Below are positions 1 through 7,666 of a stretch of DNA of 18,695 nt, in pieces (the stretch's first letter is position 1; the number at the start of each line of letters is the position of its first letter). The notes below the pieces were generated by a model. That model searched no databases and was not told the origin of the DNA. It saw only the letters and a list, made by a program, of their open reading frames with translations. The position numbers and the translations under genes are program-made. This DNA is from a virus (Duplodnaviria; Heunggongvirae; Uroviricota; Caudoviricetes), in IMG/VR virus record IMGVR_UViG_2609459839_000004. One strand, given 5' to 3'.

Positions 1-522
1 ATGTCAAAGCCAAAATACCCTTTTGAAAAGCGCCTTGAAGTCGTGAATCACTACTTCACAACTGATGATGGTTACAGGATCATCTCGGCACGTTTTGGTG
101 TCCCCCGAACCCAGGTCAGGACATGGGTTGCCCTCTATGAAAAACATGGAGAAAAAGGTTTAATTCCCAAACCTAAAGGCGTTAGTGCTGATCCAGAGTT
201 GCGTATTAAGGTCGTGAAAGCTGTGATCGAGCAGCACATGTCCCTTAATCAGGCTGCTGCTCACTTTATGCTTGCTGGTAGTGGTTCTGTAGCCAGGTGG
301 CTGAAGGTCTATGAAGAGCGCGGAGAAGCTGGTTTACGCGCGCTCAAGATTGGCACCAAAAGAAACATTGCAATATCAGTTGATCCAGAAAAAGCGGCAT
401 CAGCATTGGAGCTGTCAAAAGACCGACGCATTGAGGATCTTGAAAGGCAAGTTCGATTTCTTGAAACGCGGCTTATGTATCTAAAAAAGCTGAAAGCCTT
501 AGCTCATCCCACGAAAAAGTGA
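1..522 (+). CDS. insJ: IS150 transposase OrfA (InsJ), HTH DNA-binding component
   Basis: 173-aa ORF starting MSKPKYPFEKRLEVVNHYF..., recognised as IS150 OrfA; ends just after the slippery heptamer. Confidence 0.9.
   Translation: MSKPKYPFEKRLEVVNHYFTTDDGYRIISARFGVPRTQVRTWVALYEKHGEKGLIPKPKGVSADPELRIKVVKAVIEQHMSLNQAAAHFMLAGSGSVARWLKVYEERGEAGLRALKIGTKRNIAISVDPEKAASALELSKDRRIEDLERQVRFLETRLMYLKKLKALAHPTKK
483..489 (+). other. Programmed -1 ribosomal frameshift site (slippery heptamer A_AAA_AAG)
   Basis: A AAA AAG is in the insJ zero frame (codons cta aaa aag); the -1 frame is open from here into insK. IS3-family elements make OrfAB this way. Confidence 0.7.
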
Positions 523-1370
523 AAGTACTCAACGAGCTAAGGCAGTTTTATCCTCTTGATGAGCTTCTCAGGGCTGCGGAGATACCGCGCAGTACGTTTT
601 ATTATCATCTAAAGGCTCTCAGCAAGCCTGACAAGTATGCGGACGTTAAAAAGCGTATTAGTGAGATTTATCACGAGAATAGAGGCCGATACGGATACCG
701 TAGGGTAACGCTGTCTCTTCATCGAGAAGGGAAACAGATTAACCATAAAGCTGTTCAGCGCCTGATGGGAACCCTCTCACTTAAAGCAGCGATTAAGGTC
801 AAGCGATACCGCTCTTACAGAGGAGAGGTAGGGCAAACCGCCCCTAATGTTCTCCAAAGAGATTTCAAGGCTACGCGGCCAAACGAGAAGTGGGTTACCG
901 ATGTTACTGAATTTGCAGTCAATGGGCGCAAGCTGTATTTGTCTCCAGTAATAGATCTCTTCAACAACGAAGTTATTTCTTACAGCCTTTCGGAAAGACC
1001 AGTGATGAACATGGTTGAGAATATGCTCGATCAGGCATTCAAAAAGCTTAATCCTCACGAGCATCCTGTTCTGCACTCTGACCAGGGATGGCAGTATCGT
1101 ATGAGAAGATATCAAAATATCCTTAAAGAACATGGTATTAAACAAAGCATGTCCAGAAAAGGCAATTGTCTGGATAATGCTGTGGTGGAGTGTTTCTTTG
1201 GAACCTTAAAGTCGGAGTGTTTTTATCTTGATGAGTTCAGTAATATAAGCGAACTGAAGGATGCTGTTACGGAATATATTGAATACTACAACAGCAGAAG
1301 AATTAGCCTGAAATTAAAAGGTCTGACTCCAATTGAATATCGGAATCAGACCTATATGCCTCGTGTTTAA
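519..1370 (+). CDS. insK: IS150 transposase OrfB (InsK), DDE catalytic domain; expressed mainly as an InsJK fusion
   Basis: 283-aa ORF in the -1 frame relative to insJ; the track start at 519 is GTG; integrase-core-like segments ([15 protein letters not shown]) present. Confidence 0.88.
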
Positions 1371-1793: not shown

Positions 1794-2066
1794 ATGGCGC
1801 ACAAAACCAAATTTCACAATTCTGATACCGACCTTGCCATCCGGCATGGGCGGCGTTCACACGCATTTAAATATGACTGGTATCAGCATGACCCCTGCAC
1901 TGAAGAACAGGCCGAATGGCTGATTCAGAACTACCGCAGACGTGGGTATGAGTTTAAGAAAGCCCTCAGCCTCGACTTCCGACACTGGATCATCTCAGTC
2001 AGACTGCCTTACTCTGAACGCCCACCGCGTCCGTCCCGCACATTCCAGCAACGGATCTGGAGGTAA
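1794..2066 (+). CDS. Hypothetical small protein (~90 aa) between hok and the DUF968 gene
   Basis: ATG at 1794 lies downstream of the hok terminator; its stop (taa 2064-2066) abuts the GTG start of the next gene. Start choice is uncertain; the upstream part of track ORF 1635..2066 overlaps the hok 3' structure. Confidence 0.35.
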   Translation: MAHKTKFHNSDTDLAIRHGRRSHAFKYDWYQHDPCTEEQAEWLIQNYRRRGYEFKKALSLDFRHWIISVRLPYSERPPRPSRTFQQRIWR

Positions 2067-2067
2067 C

Positions 2068-3126
2068 GTGCGGGTATTGCTTCGACCTGTTCCGGTACCG
2101 GAACTCGGGCTGGTGGTCCTTAAGCCTGGTCGTGAATCCATGCAGGTATTTCATAACCCTCGAGTGCTGGTGGAGCCGGAACCGAAAAGCATGCGCGGTC
2201 TGCCGTGCGGAGTTGTTCCTGCCATTCGCCAGCCGCTGGCGGAAGACAAATCATTGCTGCCATTTTTCAGCAATGAGCAGGTAATTCGTGCTGCCGGTGG
2301 CACTGGTGCACTGTCTGACTGGCTCCTGCGTCATGTTAAATCCTGCCAGTGGCCTCATAGTGACTACCATCACAGTGAAATCGTCATACATCGTTATGGT
2401 ACCGGAGCGATGGTGTTGTGCTGGCACTGCGACAACCAGCTGCGTGACCAGACATCCGAATCACTCGAGCAACTTGCTCATCAAAACCTGTCAGCATGGA
2501 TGATTAACGTCATACGCAATGCAATGAATGGTACGCAAGAGCGGGAATTATCGCTGGCTGAGTTATCCTGGTGGGCGGTCTGCAATCAGGTGGCGGACGC
2601 GCTACCGGAAGCGGTATTACGTCGTTCGCTGGGGTTGCGTGCGGAAAAAATCCGCTCAATGTACCGTGAAAGCGACATCGTACCGGGAGAGCAGACCGCC
2701 ACCAGCATACTGAAGCAGCGCACAAAAAATATTGCGCTGCCACTTCACGTCCACCAGCAACAGCCCCCACTCCAGGAAAAGACGTTAGTAAGCATCGCCG
2801 TTGATCCGGAGTCACCGGCTCAGTATCTCCAGCGCCAGAAACCACAACGGGAAGAGATGCCTGTATACACGCGCTGGGTAAAAACGCAGAAATGCATGAC
2901 GTGCGGTAATCAGGCAGATGATCCGCATCACATCATTGGTCATGGCCTGGGAGGTATGGGAACAAAGGCTGATGATTTGTTTGTTATTCCGCTGTGCCGT
3001 AAATGTCATAACGAACTGCACGCCGGGGTAAAAGATTTTGAAGAAAAACACGGCAGCCAGCTGTTGTTGCTGATTCGTTTTTTAATGCACGCGAGAAATT
3101 CGGGTGTCCTGAAGTGGAAAGCATGA
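2068..3126 (+). CDS. DUF968-family phage protein (YdfU-like) with C-terminal HNH-like Cys/His motif
   Basis: C-terminus CMTCGNQADDPHHIIGHGLGG...PLCRKCHNELH is an HNH-type motif; GTG at 2068 follows GGAGG at 2058-2062; alternative ATG start at 2140. This gene sits just upstream of Q in Qin-type prophages. Confidence 0.65.
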   Translation: MRVLLRPVPVPELGLVVLKPGRESMQVFHNPRVLVEPEPKSMRGLPCGVVPAIRQPLAEDKSLLPFFSNEQVIRAAGGTGALSDWLLRHVKSCQWPHSDYHHSEIVIHRYGTGAMVLCWHCDNQLRDQTSESLEQLAHQNLSAWMINVIRNAMNGTQERELSLAELSWWAVCNQVADALPEAVLRRSLGLRAEKIRSMYRESDIVPGEQTATSILKQRTKNIALPLHVHQQQPPLQEKTLVSIAVDPESPAQYLQRQKPQREEMPVYTRWVKTQKCMTCGNQADDPHHIIGHGLGGMGTKADDLFVIPLCRKCHNELHAGVKDFEEKHGSQLLLLIRFLMHARNSGVLKWKA

Positions 3127-3492
3127 ATGACTGAACGCATAGAATTTGTTTTGCCTTACCCGCCAACGGTGAACACTTACTGGCGACGTCGTGGCAGCAC
3201 ATATTTTGTATCAAAAGCCGGTGAGCGTTATCGCCGTGATGTGGCGCTTATTGTTCGCCAGCAGCGGCTGAAATTAAACCTGTCCGGAAGGCTGGCGATA
3301 AAGATTATTGCAGAGCCACCGGATAAGCGCCGCCGCGACCTGGACAATATCCTGAAGGCACCACTGGATGCGCTGACGCATGCCGGACTACTTATAGACG
3401 ACGAGCAGTTTGATGAAATCAATATTGTGCGCGGTCAGCTCGTTCCTGGTGGGCGGCTGGGGATAAAAATCACAGAACTGGAGTGCGCATGA
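3127..3492 (+). CDS. rusA: RusA-family Holliday junction resolvase
   Basis: 121 aa with LPYPPTVNTYWRRRG and RRRDLDNILKAPLDAL motifs as in RusA; typical nin-region position. Confidence 0.85.
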   Translation: MTERIEFVLPYPPTVNTYWRRRGSTYFVSKAGERYRRDVALIVRQQRLKLNLSGRLAIKIIAEPPDKRRRDLDNILKAPLDALTHAGLLIDDEQFDEINIVRGQLVPGGRLGIKITELECA

Positions 3493-4178
3493 ATAACCAG
3501 TATTTACAGTTTGTGCGTGAGCAGCTCATTATCGCCACCGCTGATTTGAGTGGGGCAACAAAAGGTCAGCTTGAAGCCTGGCAAGAGAATGCCATGTTCG
3601 ATACAGGGCGTTACAGGCGTAAAAAAATCCGGTACCGCGATGAAGTGACTGGAAAAATGATAACGCGGGATAATCCACCAATCCCGGGAAAGCAATCGCT
3701 GGCGAAAGGTTCATCAATTGCCCTGGTCAGTCCGGTTGAGTTTTCGACATCATCATGGCGACGCGCCGTTCTGTCTCTTGAAGAGCATCAGAAGGCGTGG
3801 GTGCTGTGGGTATACAGTGAAAATCCGAGTTGGGATTATCAGGTGGTCATTGCGAAATGGGCGTGGGATAAGTTTCAGGTGCATTTTGGCACCAGAAAAA
3901 TTACAGGGAAAACGCTTGAGCGTCTGAAGAAATTAATCTGGCTGGCGGCGCAGGATGTCAGGGGGAGGATTACTGGGCGTGACGTCTACCAGCGACAGGA
4001 ACTTGCCAGACTGTGTGGAGTTAAGCCTGACAACTGGAGCCATAATTATGCGAACTACTGGCGTGAGATGTGCGACATTTTTAAGAAACTCGATACAGAA
4101 TCCTTGATTTGCACCGTGAAAATGAGATCGCAACAAAAAGCGACCTTTTCACGACGAGATATTGCAAAAGTCAATTAA
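3489..4178 (+). CDS. Late-gene antiterminator Q (QuuQ-like family)
   Basis: ~229-aa ORF directly upstream of a promoter-plus-terminator unit and the cargo/lysis region; ATGA overlap with the rusA stop. Family assignment is by synteny and recollection, not a verified alignment. Confidence 0.6.
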   Translation: MNNQYLQFVREQLIIATADLSGATKGQLEAWQENAMFDTGRYRRKKIRYRDEVTGKMITRDNPPIPGKQSLAKGSSIALVSPVEFSTSSWRRAVLSLEEHQKAWVLWVYSENPSWDYQVVIAKWAWDKFQVHFGTRKITGKTLERLKKLIWLAAQDVRGRITGRDVYQRQELARLCGVKPDNWSHNYANYWREMCDIFKKLDTESLICTVKMRSQQKATFSRRDIAKVN

Positions 4179-4191
4179 ATCGCATACATTT
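4163..4191 (+). promoter_or_regulatory. Candidate late promoter pR' (sigma70 -35/-10) overlapping the 3' end of Q
   Basis: TTGCAA (4163-4168), 17-bp spacer, TACATT (4186-4191). Confidence 0.4.
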
Positions 4192-4226
4192 TATGTAAAT
4201 GTGATATTTTGCCGTATAGTGTGTAA

Positions 4227-4249
4227 ACCCGCTTAAATGCGGGTTTTTT
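4227..4249 (+). terminator. tR'-like intrinsic terminator downstream of Q
   Basis: acccgc-ttaaat-gcgggt hairpin followed by a T run, ~35 nt downstream of the predicted start site. Confidence 0.6.
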
Positions 4250-4322
4250 GCTTAACTCTGTGGACCTTTTTATCTGTAGTTGTAAGATATGGATATTCTT
4301 ACAATTTAGGTCGGTGAGCTTA

Positions 4323-5087
4323 ATGGAAGAACAGCACGGTAATTACTTTATAAAACGAATTCAGTTGATTGGAAGAGGTGCATTTGGCTTTGTTGAACAC
4401 GTTAAGGTTTACAACCTCAACAAGGGTGAATGTGGGGATTATGCTAGAAAGGTTTTAGCCCCCGAAAAACCAGAGCTTTTGGCGCAAATAGAGCAGTTTA
4501 GAAGGCGTTTTAAAAGGGAGGTCGTGTATCAATCACATTGCGTACATAGCAATATTGTTCCTATTTATTTGTGCGATTTGTTTGCCGAGAATCCATGGTT
4601 CATTATGGATAAAGCAGAATGTGATCTTGAGCACGAAATAACGAACAACCTTCTTACAACAGATCAAAAAATTTCAATAGTGAAAATGGTATTAGATGGT
4701 GTAGCTCACATCCATGCGAAAGGCTATTTACACAGAGATATAAAACCATTTAATGTCTTGCGATTTAGCGACGGAACATACAAGGTGTCTGATTTTGGTC
4801 TGGTAAAAGATACAAATCCCGAAGGGGATACCACTAAATTGACCGAGATCGGTACCCGTATGGGAAGTACAAGATATATGGCTCCCGAGATTTTATATAA
4901 TGCCGAGTATTCAGTTAAGACTGATGTTTATGCGGTGGGGCGGTTAATTGAGGACTTAAATTTAGATGATAAAAAAATAAAGCCTATCATAGCGAAGTGT
5001 ACCAGGATGGATAAAGATGATAGATATCAGACAATAGATGATGTGGCGTTTGATTTTGTGCATTCTTTTTTAAGGAGTGAGTCATGA
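4323..5087 (+). CDS. Eukaryotic-like (Hanks-type) Ser/Thr protein kinase, minimal catalytic domain
   Basis: Gly-rich loop GRGAFGFV, putative catalytic Lys in YARKV, catalytic loop HRDIKPFN, DFG, YMAPE, DVYAVG; AT-rich codon usage unlike the flanking phage genes. Confidence 0.85.
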   Translation: MEEQHGNYFIKRIQLIGRGAFGFVEHVKVYNLNKGECGDYARKVLAPEKPELLAQIEQFRRRFKREVVYQSHCVHSNIVPIYLCDLFAENPWFIMDKAECDLEHEITNNLLTTDQKISIVKMVLDGVAHIHAKGYLHRDIKPFNVLRFSDGTYKVSDFGLVKDTNPEGDTTKLTEIGTRMGSTRYMAPEILYNAEYSVKTDVYAVGRLIEDLNLDDKKIKPIIAKCTRMDKDDRYQTIDDVAFDFVHSFLRSES

Positions 5088-5827
5088 TTCAGCTGATAGC
5101 GACTTCATCATTCTCGTATCCAAAAGAACCAGGTAGGGTCAACGAAGATTCATTGCTTCCTCCCAAAATTGTAGGGGATGGCATCTTATTTGCCGTAGCT
5201 GATGGTGTAGGTTCATACACTGGTGCCAGTCAGGCTTCATCAATGGCAATTGCTGAGCTTTCAGCATTGACAAGCTTATCTTTTGACACAGTTCCGGATG
5301 TATTTGATGAAGTTAAGCGAAAGGTTATGTCGTTAGCTGATGTTAATGATGAGTTCGATAAAGCTGCTACTACACTTACGTTTTGTTATGTTTGTGATAG
5401 CGGAATTATTATTGGTCATATTGGTGATTGTCGTTTGTATTGCATTGGAGAGAAGAAAGCATACCAATTGACGAAGGACGATACCAGGCATCAGATGCTA
5501 ATTGATCAGAATATTTTTAAACCCAGAGATTTGAAGGATAAACCGGGCAAAAATATCTTAACGACGGCTATAGCCTCAAATGTTGATATGGAATACGACT
5601 GTGATTTTATCACATGGAAAGATTTACCTAGTATTAACGGGGTATATCATCTGTGTATCATGTCTGATGGGGTTCATAACGTTTGGGAAAAACGCCCCAG
5701 ATTTACATCAAATACGATGAGTAATAGTCAGAAGTTTTCTAATGGCATTTTGCGTCGTATAGAGAGAGCCGGACCTGATGATGACTTTTCTTTAGTAAGT
5801 ATAATGGTGCGTGTGACGTCAGATTAG
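5084..5827 (+). CDS. PP2C-family (PPM) Ser/Thr protein phosphatase
   Basis: Motifs NEDS, AVADGVGSY, GHIGDCRLY, LTKDDT, MSDGV in PP2C order; AAGGAG SD inside the kinase 3' end; ATGA start/stop overlap with the kinase. Confidence 0.8.
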   Translation: MIQLIATSSFSYPKEPGRVNEDSLLPPKIVGDGILFAVADGVGSYTGASQASSMAIAELSALTSLSFDTVPDVFDEVKRKVMSLADVNDEFDKAATTLTFCYVCDSGIIIGHIGDCRLYCIGEKKAYQLTKDDTRHQMLIDQNIFKPRDLKDKPGKNILTTAIASNVDMEYDCDFITWKDLPSINGVYHLCIMSDGVHNVWEKRPRFTSNTMSNSQKFSNGILRRIERAGPDDDFSLVSIMVRVTSD

Positions 5828-5899
5828 TTGTATAAACTCAGTAGGGAATGCTAATTTCACATACAACATAGTTAAAGAAAACTTAATTTTAATGTAAAA

Positions 5900-5924
5900 A
5901 GGCTGCCCTCAGGCGGTCTTTTTA
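5900..5924 (+). terminator. Intrinsic terminator after the kinase/phosphatase operon
   Basis: ggctgcc-ctca-ggcggtc hairpin (with G-U pairs) followed by ttttt. Confidence 0.4.
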
Positions 5925-6046
5925 TGCTCGAAAATTGATGCAGTACGTTAAACGCGCTGGTGGTTGCGAATACCGGTCTTTCAGCTTGCTGGCTTTTTAG
6001 ACAAGAGTTATTGGTATGTCACGTTAACCAGAAAAGGGAAAAAGAC

Positions 6047-6244
6047 ATGCTAAAACAGCAGGATATGACCGAAACCGCCAGAGTGGTGTTTAATGAATTA
6101 AGCGTCACCGAACCGGCGACCGTCGGGGAAATTGCGCAGAATACTTACCTTTCACGCGAACGCTGCCAGTTAATACTGACTCAGCTTGTTATGGCGGGTC
6201 TGGCAGATTATCAGTTCGGTTGTTACAGACGCCTTCCTCAGTGA
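6047..6244 (+). CDS. Small winged-helix/HTH-like protein (65 aa) upstream of the methyltransferase
   Basis: ATG at 6047 after a purine-rich stretch; segment ATVGEIAQNTYLSRERCQLILTQLVMAGL resembles an HTH recognition unit. Confidence 0.4.
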   Translation: MLKQQDMTETARVVFNELSVTEPATVGEIAQNTYLSRERCQLILTQLVMAGLADYQFGCYRRLPQ

Positions 6245-6394
6245 AGGTTTTTTAATTTGTGGTAATGGGCGGCTGGTGGGTGTTAGCGGCACCTGCCAGC
6301 CATCTGCTCATGCGTTGGGGTCACAAGCAAACCTCAGGCCCATCTGCTTTGCGCAAAAGCGGTATGAGCCTATCAGAGAAGTGCTTATTGATCT

Positions 6395-7444
6395 ATGGCC
6401 AATACTGTAAAAATATCCAGTTGTGAGTTAATCAACGCTGATTGCCTGGAATTTATCCAGACCTTACCGGAAAATTCTGTCGATCTGATAGTCACAGACC
6501 CGCCATACTTTAAAGTGAAGCCCGAGGGCTGGGATAACCAGTGGGAGGGCGACGATGATTACCTGAAATGGCTGGACCAGTGTCTGGCGCAGTTCTGGCG
6601 GGTACTGAAGCCTGCCGGAAGTCTTTACCTGTTCTGTGGTCATCGCCTGGCATCTGACACCGAAATCATGATGCGTGAGCGCTTTAATGTGCTGAACCAC
6701 ATTATCTGGGCGAAGCCGTCCGGACGCTGGAACGGGTGCAATAAGGAAAGTCTGCGGGCGTATTTTCCGGCAACAGAGCGCATTCTGTTTGCAGAACATT
6801 ATCAGGGACCGTATCGCCCGAAAGATGATGGCTATGTGGAGCAGGGGCGCGAGCTAAAACAGCACGTCATGGCCCCGCTGATTTCTTACTTTCGTGATGC
6901 GCGTAAATCACTGGGAATAACGTCAAAACAGATAGCGGAAGCCACCGGAAAGAAAAACATGGCTTCGCACTGGTTTGGTACCAGTCAGTGGCAGTTACCG
7001 AACGAGGGTGATTACAACAAATTGCAGGCGTTGTTTGCGCGTGTTGCGGCAGAAAAACATCAGCGCGGGGAACTGGAAAAGCCACACCACCAGCTGGTCA
7101 GCACATACAGTGAGCTGAACCGGCAGTATACGGAACTGCTGAGTGAATATAAAAATTTGCGGCGGTATTTCGGTGTGACGGCGCAGGTTCCGTACACCGA
7201 TGTCTGGACGCATAAACCGGTGCAGCACTATCCAGGGAAACATCCGTGCGAAAAACCGGCAGAAATGCTGCAGCAGATAATCAGCGCAAGTAGTCGTCCT
7301 GGTGATCTGGTTGCGGATTTTTTCATGGGGTCGGGTTCAACGGTAAAAGCGGCGATGGCACTGGGGCGTCGTGCGATTGGTGTTGAGCTGGAGACCGGAC
7401 GTTTTGAGCAGACAGTCAGGGAAGTTCAGGATTTAATCGTTTGA
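6395..7444 (+). CDS. Orphan DNA methyltransferase, beta-class amino-MTase (N6-adenine or N4-cytosine)
   Basis: DPPY catalytic motif near the N-terminus and SAM-binding FxGxG (DFFMGSGST) near the C-terminus, the beta-class order; no adjacent restriction endonuclease gene seen. Confidence 0.85.
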   Translation: MANTVKISSCELINADCLEFIQTLPENSVDLIVTDPPYFKVKPEGWDNQWEGDDDYLKWLDQCLAQFWRVLKPAGSLYLFCGHRLASDTEIMMRERFNVLNHIIWAKPSGRWNGCNKESLRAYFPATERILFAEHYQGPYRPKDDGYVEQGRELKQHVMAPLISYFRDARKSLGITSKQIAEATGKKNMASHWFGTSQWQLPNEGDYNKLQALFARVAAEKHQRGELEKPHHQLVSTYSELNRQYTELLSEYKNLRRYFGVTAQVPYTDVWTHKPVQHYPGKHPCEKPAEMLQQIISASSRPGDLVADFFMGSGSTVKAAMALGRRAIGVELETGRFEQTVREVQDLIV

Positions 7445-7455
7445 AACGGATGAGA

Positions 7456-7484
7456 TTGCAGAATTAATTACGCACCATTATTAT
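7456..7484 (+). promoter_or_regulatory. Candidate sigma70 promoter for the tRNA cluster
   Basis: TTGCAG (7456-7461), 17-bp spacer, TATTAT (7479-7484), ~10 nt upstream of the first tRNA 5' end. Confidence 0.45.
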
Positions 7485-7493
7485 TCTGCTCCC

Positions 7494-7569
7494 GGCCCTT
7501 TAGCTCAGTGGTGAGAGCGAGCGACTCATAATCGCCAGGTCGCTGGTTCAAATCCAGCAAGGGCCACCA
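7494..7569 (+). tRNA. tRNA with CAU anticodon, most likely tRNA-Ile2 (lysidine-type, reads AUA)
   Basis: Cloverleaf: acceptor GGCCCTT/AAGGGCC, D-arm GCTC-AGTGGTGA-GAGC, anticodon loop CTCATAA, T-arm GCTGG-TTCAAAT-CCAGC, encoded CCA. Resembles ileX more than elongator Met as recalled; CAU alone cannot separate Ile2 from Met. Confidence 0.8.
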
Positions 7570-7576
7570 TCACATA

Positions 7577-7653
7577 CCGCCATTAGCTCATCAGGAAAGA
7601 GCGCCAGCTTTCGAAGCTGGTTGCGCGGAGTTCGGGTCCCCGAAGGCGGTCCA
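7577..7653 (+). tRNA. tRNA-Arg(UCG)-like, non-canonical; possibly degenerate
   Basis: Anticodon stem-loop CCAGC-TTTCGAA-GCTGG gives anticodon UCG; D-arm GCTC...GAGC; acceptor starts with C and has one mismatch, T-stem has one mismatch, T-loop TTCGGGT lacks the usual A58. Boundaries approximate. Confidence 0.5.
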
Positions 7654-7666
7654 TTATCTGTATCCT

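Follow-up and report, generated by a model that had tools for sequence, protein, structure and literature searches.

A compositional island marks a kinase–phosphatase gene pair as very probable acquired cargo of a lambda-like prophage

Introduction

The closest described counterpart of the locus examined here, a Ser/Thr protein kinase gene followed by a PP2C-type phosphatase gene in an 18,695-nucleotide stretch of Caudoviricetes DNA (IMG/VR record IMGVR_UViG_2609459839_000004; this whole stretch is hereafter the window), is KKP, a kinase–kinase–phosphatase module of the Pseudomonas prophage Pf6 and of enterobacterial P2-, P4- and Mu-like prophages (Guo et al, 2024, PMC11341870). KKP is a toxin–antitoxin-like prophage defence in which two kinases are held in check by the PP2C, itself a target of inhibition by T4 Gp59; its genes, each 900–1300 bp, run in the order PP2C, kinase(FHA), kinase(CSD), the kinases being a PfkA-type fused to a cold-shock domain (CSD) and a PfkB-type fused to an FHA domain (PMC11341870). 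The pair in the window is likewise a prophage-borne combination of a PF13672 PP2C with a PF00069 Hanks-type kinase, mobile among Gram-negative temperate phages, and a shared logic, in which a phosphatase restrains a toxic kinase, is plausible by analogy. It differs from KKP in having two genes, kinase then PP2C, in the single bare 254-residue kinase lacking FHA and cold-shock domains, and in its carriers, which are lambdoid phages that hold it in cI, Q or lysis slots.

Lambdoid prophages are mosaic in structure, and cargo such as stx is known to land in the interval between the antiterminator gene Q and the lysis genes. In the classical concept of Hendrix and Juhala, morons and conversion genes of these phages occupy recurrent slots: rexAB after cI, stx after Q and bor after the lysis genes. 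An earlier note on this DNA had read the kinase–phosphatase stretch as a moron added to a phage backbone, on the strength of its AT-richness and of terminator hairpins at either side. The analysis reported here supports the moron reading, because the cassette is present in some and absent from other collinear phages, between genes that are adjacent elsewhere, and because its composition and codon usage are deviant; the island is thus very probably acquired accessory cargo.

Results

The cassette occupies a site that is empty in collinear prophages

The Escherichia coli prophages A30 (L004) and AR_0067 (L006) carry DUF968, RusA, Q, a 212-bp spacer, a TrmB-like gene and a methylase in succession, without kinase or phosphatase. 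Pairwise BLAST showed that homology of the window to both ends at 4214 and restarts at 5897 (A30) or 5910 (AR_0067); for Stx2_EH2201 (L002) and phiP27 (L001), which carry other Q genes than the window, the restart lies at 5905 and 5912. The right edge of the insert is uncertain by ~15 bp. Where the window has 1,682 bp, the empty site has ~26 bp of unrelated sequence, and in cassette-less phages the TrmB-like gene and methylase adjoin Q. Comparison with prophages lacking the insert therefore upholds the existence of an insert as proposed in the earlier note, and replaces its limits of 4250–5960 with 4215 to ~5896 (coordinates of this and all other features are collected in Table 1).

The polymorphism extends through the species: by megablast, the coding block is present in 50 of 5,426 complete E. 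coli genomes, as two allele groups (at least 99% identity in 20 genomes, ~96% in 30), and the 3′ end of the window's Q is found in 345 E. coli genomes, in ~300 of which homology stops at 4214–4217. No target-site duplication and no terminal inverted or direct repeats were seen at the insert ends, and a Pfam scan found no transposase among the insert genes; a transposon or insertion sequence was rejected on these two grounds, and the insertion event looks, from its ends, like recombinational module exchange rather than transposition.

Two further observations concern the same interval. The interval from Q to the TrmB-like gene in phiP27 (L001 3161–4390) holds a GIY-YIG nuclease gene, which shows that different inserts can occupy this slot. 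In the second E. coli allele group (ML35 (L003), 55989, VR50 and others), homology jumps from window position 5975 to 7158 (L003 6578–6581); a deletion has here removed the TrmB-like gene together with most of the methylase, of which a 3′ pseudogene remains directly behind the cassette.

The insert is the compositional minimum of the window

By exact count, the insert as bounded by the empty sites has 38.1% G+C (38.5% over 4250–5960), compared with 50.2% in the 2 kb to the left of the island and 50.7% in the 2 kb to the right, a deficit of ~10 standard deviations (sd; binomial sd 0.012 for 1,682 bases at p=0.5). A 400-bp sliding profile descends from ~0.50 to 0.375–0.40 at ~4000–6000 and then recovers to 0.49–0.53; a scan of the whole 18.7 kb placed the start of the 1,682-bp segment of lowest G+C exactly at 4215. 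The low-GC segment returned by a two-segment likelihood fit on 2000–8000 (4077–6101, log-likelihood gain 51) is wider than the insert, since Q too is AT-rich towards its 3′ end.

Codon usage follows the same pattern. The G+C content of third codon positions (GC3) is 0.362 in the kinase gene (z = -3.7) and 0.336 in the PP2C gene (z = -4.2), relative to 18 backbone phage genes in the window (mean 0.554, sd 0.052, minimum 0.495); AGA/AGG account for 15 of the 26 Arg codons of the cassette and ATA for 12 of its 39 Ile codons. The earlier note had judged by eye that the stretch is markedly AT-rich, with AT-rich codons, and that the flanking genes are richer in GC; each of these judgements holds upon computation (DUF968, rusA, Q, the TrmB-like gene and the methylase span 48.1–53.2%), G+C and codon usage both differ from the neighbouring genes, and the names that it had given to DUF968, rusA, Q (PF06323) and methyltransferase (an N6/N4 DNA methylase) are correct.

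The island is not the sole AT-rich one in the window, shorter examples lying at ~8000–8800 and 11200–12600; the opposite-strand IraM-type, DUF1398 and DUF3950 genes look like additional morons.

Both genes retain their catalytic machinery

The kinase start was placed at MEEQHGNY, where homologues and the RefSeq model begin, and an upstream TTG at 4248 was rejected. Across an alignment of 24 homologues (43–75% identity), the invariant residues comprise G17/G19/G22, K43, E66, H137-R138-D139, N144, D157-F158-G159, the APE motif (P188-E189) and R234; all of the Hanks-type Ser/Thr kinase motifs, from the G-loop through to the subdomain XI Arg, are thereby present. The arginine of the HRD motif makes this an RD kinase, a type that usually needs phosphorylation of its activation loop. 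Pfam detects only the Pkinase and PK_Tyr_Ser-Thr domains; the nearest solved kinase is Staphylococcus aureus Stk1 (4eqm), and the domain matches the PADLOC defence-kinase profiles mad6, PD-T4-6 and Stk2.

The ATG of the phosphatase gene overlaps the kinase TGA (ATGA, a 4-bp overlap), which implies translational coupling. Residues D22, D40-G41, G114-D115-x-R117, D195-G196 and D233-D234 are invariant in 15 homologues and, by alignment to PstP (DGMGG and GDSR motifs), correspond to the metal ligands of the PPM family, all of which are present; PstP and Stp1 are the closest solved relatives. Relative to the ML35 allele, the ratio of nonsynonymous to synonymous substitution rates (dN/dS) is 0.04 for the kinase (synonymous rate, dS, 0.13) and 0.11 for the PP2C (dS 0.17). 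Because the catalytic motifs are kept, we regard the fold and predicted competence of both proteins as settled; judged from their sequences, the kinase and PP2C are intact, catalytically competent and under purifying selection. RefSeq already annotates both, generically, and with the same kinase start. The PP2C also matches positions 273–520 of the 565-position phrog_5650 ("unknown function"), which the kinase does not match, hinting that some phage PP2C members may be longer or fused.

The pair is tightly linked and recurs in several accessory slots

A protein search gathered at least 285 clusters of ~250-residue kinases across the Gammaproteobacteria. In prophages of Raoultella, Yersinia pseudotuberculosis and Hafnia (57–75% identity), the PP2C lies directly behind the kinase and the pair sits between Q and holin, the Q genes of these carriers belonging to three unrelated Pfam families (PF06530, PF03589 and PF06323). 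Phage phiES15 also has the pair between Q and holin; in Providencia it stands behind a methylase and ahead of the holin, in phage Flotzy behind the spanin and ahead of the terminase, in Pseudomonas putida among transposases and in Vibrio vulnificus in another island.

An IMG/VR scan yielded 62 loci of the family, with PP2C directly downstream of the kinase in 60 of them, usually by a 4-bp overlap. A Pfam scan of the neighbourhood of 51 non-redundant IMG/VR loci (counts are of proteins matched) returned as upstream neighbours HTH_3 (10), lysozyme (9), YdaS/Cro-type regulators (7), Rz (6), Peptidase_S24 (6) and Q (5), and as downstream neighbours RecT (6), small terminase (5 Terminase_2 and 3 DUF1441) and holin (3). 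Four loci (L120, L122, L130, L134) show the arrangement cro(-) / cI(HTH+S24)(+) / kinase(+) / PP2C(+) / … RecT. That the pair always follows Q was considered and rejected, as post-lysis and post-cI slots are also seen in the IMG/VR sample; the pair occupies at least three accessory slots, after cI, after Q and after the lysis genes. Inspection of the cI-slot contigs (L120, L122–L124, L130, L134, L152) places the pair 70–115 bp behind a co-oriented cI-type repressor (helix–turn–helix plus S24 peptidase), divergent from the cro/YdaS gene and upstream of RecT. A co-oriented slot behind cI is the position of rexAB in lambda.

A terminator-like hairpin lies within 150 nt of the PP2C stop in 43 of 61 loci, versus 9 of 263 control windows, in keeping with a transcription unit that is closed off from the phage genes behind it. 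The cassette is also 7–14.5 G+C points below its ±4 kb flanks in 11 of 11 contexts, in hosts whose flanks range from 41% (Providencia) to 54% (Pseudomonas) G+C. Since it is AT-rich in every host examined, low G+C marks the cassette as cargo but does not date its arrival, and is more than a sign of recent import. The cassette is an old, mobile, self-contained module with maintained AT-richness.

Degraded copies occur in both directions, with a broken kinase beside an intact PP2C in L132, L153, E. coli 510016 and H176 and a broken PP2C beside an apparently intact kinase in L158, a sample too small to speak of asymmetry. Strain E24377A carries two lambdoid prophages (L103 at 1.43 Mb, L104 at 1.28 Mb) with identical Q, kinase and PP2C proteins that differ downstream in tRNA sets and lysis genes, which suggests that a block of Q plus cassette was exchanged or converted between co-resident prophages.

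The junctions coincide with a putative late promoter and with terminators

Hairpin terminators on both sides of the island had been proposed in the earlier note; both exist, the left one just outside its start coordinate of 4250, and only one of them belongs to the cargo. The left terminator (AAACCCGC-TTAAAT-GCGGGTTT, then TTTGC; -13.5 kcal/mol, z -4.3 vs shuffles) is missing from the empty-site sequences, and Hafnia prophages have a similar hairpin (TAAACCCGCC…GCGGGTTTTTGC) ahead of the cassette; this Hafnia hairpin (TAAACCCGCCTAGTGCGGGTTTTTGCG), behind a PF06323-type Q and ahead of the orthologous cassette, closely resembles the left terminator of the window. The right terminator (AAAAAGGCUGCC-CUCA-GGCGGUCUUUUU; -15.5 kcal/mol, z -4.3 vs shuffles) and the sequence following it (…TTTTTATGC.CGAAAA…GTACGTTAAACGCGCTGGTGG) are kept in all four cassette-less comparators (L004, L006, phiP27 and Stx2_EH2201). 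The left terminator thus came with the insert, and the right one, because of its conservation in cassette-less phages, is the backbone's own, homologous to the single post-Q terminator that these comparators have.

Immediately to the left of the junction lies an extended -10-like motif, found by eye in every PF06323-Q phage that we looked at; as TGnTAT..T it holds the same post-Q place in L004, L006, L003, the Hafnia prophages L093 and L094, and phiES15 (TGgTATGTT in Hafnia, TGaTATTAT in phiES15). Our promoter scan did not report the motif at 4202–4210 as a full -35/-10 promoter, and we consider it a candidate for the Q-dependent late promoter pR′. Transcription from this putative pR′ would start a few bases from the junction, and the left hairpin would be a tR′-type terminator of the donor phage; the cassette would then lie within the late transcription unit, between two terminators that Q-modified polymerase would read through.

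The leader of the kinase gene contains an inverted repeat that folds at -8.3 kcal/mol (z -3.1). In the second E. coli allele (hairpin at L003 4881–4909) the 76-nt leader has only two substitutions, both at mutually paired positions (G-C to U-G); this is suggestive, though it stems from one event. The hairpin or palindrome might act as an RNA element or as an operator.

The carrier is a defective relative of Stx phages

The cassette is carried by a defective, lambda-like E. coli prophage. An IS3-family transposase (orfA/orfB) occupies the left end of the window (1–1370), and in the stretch 12327–18166 Nu1 (12327–12875) is directly followed by gpD, gpE, FI, FII, Z and U, then by gpI and a J fragment; this prophage lacks the portal gene, the large terminase gene and tail genes V to K. 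From the backbone terminator onwards, across the methylase and tRNA genes, the window is collinear with the Stx2a phage Stx2_EH2201; homology restarts past stx2AB (window ~7785 vs L002 6383–7713), the toxin segment being absent, and the window prophage is a stx-less relative of Stx phages. Three tRNA genes (CAU, Arg-UCG and Arg-UCU) lie at 7494–7743, 1.7 kb downstream of the AT-rich cassette, in the slot of ileZ/argN/argO in Stx phages; the CAU tRNA was called Met here and is Ile in the annotation of related prophages. The Q protein of the window found no solved relative by sequence.

Table 1. Features of the cassette, its flanks and other AT-rich genes in the window.
Feature	Position	Strand	G+C (%)	Remarks
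DUF968 gene (left flank)			53.2	
rusA (left flank)			52.2	
Antiterminator Q (left flank)	3483–4178	+	48.1	PF06323, 4e-84; phrog_304
Extended -10-like motif TGaTATTTT	4202–4210	+		Backbone; abuts left junction; candidate pR′
Inserted accessory segment	4215–5896	+	38.1	1,682 bp: upstream terminator, leader, kinase, PP2C, AT-rich tail
Upstream intrinsic terminator	4225–4252	+		Within insert; stem 4225–4246, then T-run
5′-leader hairpin/inverted repeat	4279–4305	+		9-bp TTGTAAGA-N9-TCTTACAA; 18 nt before kinase start codon
Ser/Thr protein kinase	4323–5087	+	38.2	254 aa; Pfam Pkinase 2e-33; bare Hanks-type catalytic domain, RD type
PP2C (PPM) Ser/Thr phosphatase	5084–5827	+	39.5	247 aa; Pfam PP2C_2 2e-14; start overlaps kinase stop
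AT-rich 3′ tail of insert	5828–5896	+	24.6	No counterpart in empty sites
Downstream intrinsic terminator	5896–5926	+		Phage backbone; hairpin 5896–5923, then T-run
Right flank	6047–7444	+	TrmB-like 49.5; methylase 51.5	Small TrmB-like winged helix–turn–helix gene 6047–6244; DNA methyltransferase 6395–7444
IraM-type anti-adapter gene	8033–8368	-	34.5	Name from annotation of homologous region in L006 and L002
DUF1398 gene; DUF3950 gene	11303–11728; 11771–12004	-; -	31.7 (DUF1398)	AT-rich, opposite strand

Discussion

A predicted role in exclusion

We put the probability that the main role of the pair is anti-phage or toxin–antitoxin in nature at about 0.5. More specifically, from its context and the KKP precedent we predict, at even odds, a function in exclusion that benefits the lysogen in the manner of a toxin and its antidote. 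Several features lead us to this prediction: the linkage of kinase and phosphatase is strict, with translational coupling; the pair recurs in exclusion and conversion slots, including the cI operon; a 3′ terminator would insulate the downstream phage genes; purifying selection persists in a defective prophage bearing an insertion sequence; the kinase matches defence kinases at the level of the domain; and KKP sets a precedent.

An RD kinase and a coupled PP2C would together form a self-contained phosphorylation switch, sited here in the late-operon leader between a putative Q-dependent promoter and the backbone's first terminator. In the lysogen, where the pair might be transcribed by polymerase that reads through the upstream terminator or starts at a weak internal promoter, the phosphatase would keep the kinase activation loop and/or its substrates dephosphorylated. 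An incoming phage would upset this balance, for instance through a phosphatase inhibitor such as that known to act on KKP, and the freed kinase would phosphorylate host or phage proteins and abort the infection; after induction, transcription would be carried out by Q-modified polymerase. The expression pattern, targets and defence phenotype in this scheme are those that we infer.

Several points weigh against a role in exclusion. The kinase has no sensor domain. Its PADLOC matches span the generic kinase domain alone, and the PP2C has no match to any defence model. No sigma-70 site of at least 9/12 was found by scanning the interval from Q to the kinase (4179–4322), where a weak candidate spotted by eye (8/12, TGGACC-16-TAAGAT, 4261–4288) is not relied on here; genes that lie behind a strong terminator, downstream of a presumed late promoter, favour expression after induction over expression in the lysogen. 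One locus (L158) apparently keeps the kinase open reading frame beside a truncated PP2C, which would not be expected for a potent toxin. Finally, we found no experiment on a two-gene kinase–PP2C module in searches of the openly accessible literature.

Alternative explanations

The late position of the cassette could be taken at face value, the pair being a lytic-cycle tool of late genes, transcribed by Q-modified RNA polymerase after induction to remodel the host (takeover or anti-defence, as for the T7 kinase) and improve the burst. In the window and its closest relatives the pair does lie just behind Q and a post-Q terminator, co-oriented with the lysis genes, and the scan detected no independent promoter; some phages are also known to encode kinases that act on host proteins by phosphorylation and disable defences (PMC13645617). 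We nonetheless consider this unlikely, for takeover and anti-defence functions are usually needed early, which does not suit the start of the late operon, the module is also found beside cI, in a position of lysogenic transcription, and in non-phage islands, purifying selection acts on it in a prophage that no longer has its portal, its large terminase or most of its tail genes, and a kinase meant simply for takeover would be opposed by the phosphatase translated along with it.

A role in regulating how the prophage is maintained or induced, in which the kinase/phosphatase balance acts on a nucleoid protein or a phage regulator, would be compatible with defence, and KKP governs Pf prophage production via phosphorylation of MvaU (PMC11341870). 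The placement of the module next to cI/cro and Q, the regulatory hubs of lambdoid phages, and the two copies in two E24377A prophages are in keeping with such a role; set against these, the module is also located behind lysis genes and at sites other than prophages, the cassette is not accompanied by a DNA-binding partner, and the carrier in the window is defective, with nothing left to regulate. We therefore rate lysogeny control as quite unlikely.

The cassette might also never have been acquired, its low G+C being intrinsic to both gene families and the polymorphism reflecting deletion from an ancestral phage. Since the cassette has a lower G+C content than its flanks in all of the hosts examined, an import can be neither dated nor proven by composition alone, and, with 26 bp of unrelated sequence in the empty sites, the event could formally have run in either direction. 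This account is improbable given that at least three unrelated positions and three unrelated Q families require repeated movement, that ~1% of E. coli genomes carry the cassette whereas ~300 have the same Q end without it, and that homology breaks off sharply at the left junction. A virulence effector pair aimed at an animal host, by analogy with the prophage-borne kinases NleH and OspG and with the eukaryote-like kinase being present on prophages of enterotoxigenic and enteroaggregative strains (e.g. E24377A and 55989), is highly improbable when the same genes are found in isolates from rivers, wastewater and sediment, as well as in Pseudomonas putida, Hafnia, Vibrio and Xenorhabdus, always with a cytoplasmic-type PP2C, and when the best solved relatives of the kinase are of the bacterial PknB/Stk1 type.

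The prediction of exclusion could be taken one step further. It is possible, although we lean slightly against it, that the pair is a distinct, widespread and uncharacterised two-gene abortive-infection or toxin–antitoxin system that works by phosphorylation, a minimal relative of KKP hopping between cI, Q and lysis slots, whose AT-richness is functional, for instance in H-NS-type silencing; if so, low G+C would not be a trace of recent import. Even short of this, conservation of the pair, purifying selection in a dead prophage and the rexAB, stx and bor positions make it a good candidate for a defence or toxin–antitoxin module. The cassette also illustrates, cleanly and in a natural setting, how modules are exchanged precisely where a putative late promoter meets a terminator, and it carries the caution that low G+C may be a stable trait of a mobile module and not an acquisition clock.

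Comparison with known systems

As a compositional island, the cassette is ordinary phage cargo; the cargo itself is a two-gene variant of prophage kinase–phosphatase modules, not previously described as a pair in PADLOC 2.0 or the literature searched. Membership of KKP was rejected, as the window has a single kinase gene ahead of the PP2C gene, with the TrmB-like gene and the methylase coming next, and no FHA or cold-shock domain is present. The kinase shares a prophage-borne Hanks-type Ser/Thr kinase domain with PD-T4-6 of E. coli, Stk2 of Staphylococcus and the Stk of 933W, all of which act with no cognate phosphatase at their side and carry additional regions at the N or C terminus. Its match to the PD-T4-6 profile (1e-34) covers positions 11–201 of 327, and it is paired with a PP2C; Stk2 membership was rejected upon a match confined to profile positions 160–347 of 500. 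Among 50,697 deposited phages, only Flotzy and phiES15 gave kinase matches above 40% identity at E<1e-8, and the 933W-type Stk, which this similarity search did not return, was rejected as a close relative.

Like the classical morons, the cassette is an extra AT-rich unit between genes adjacent elsewhere, with a terminator at its 3′ end, in a Q–lysis interval that carries tRNAs and stx in phiP27 and Stx2_EH2201. It departs from them in that the upstream, not the downstream, terminator came with the insert, that its own promoter is only a candidate, and that the cargo is a signalling pair and not a toxin or outer-membrane protein. The combination of an RD kinase with a neighbouring gene for its cognate PPM phosphatase is, in turn, that of PknB–PstP, Stk1–Stp1 and PrkC–PrpC; those are core-genome systems with membrane-anchored PASTA-sensor kinases and the phosphatase gene first, whereas the cassette is minimal, soluble-type, phage-borne and kinase-first.

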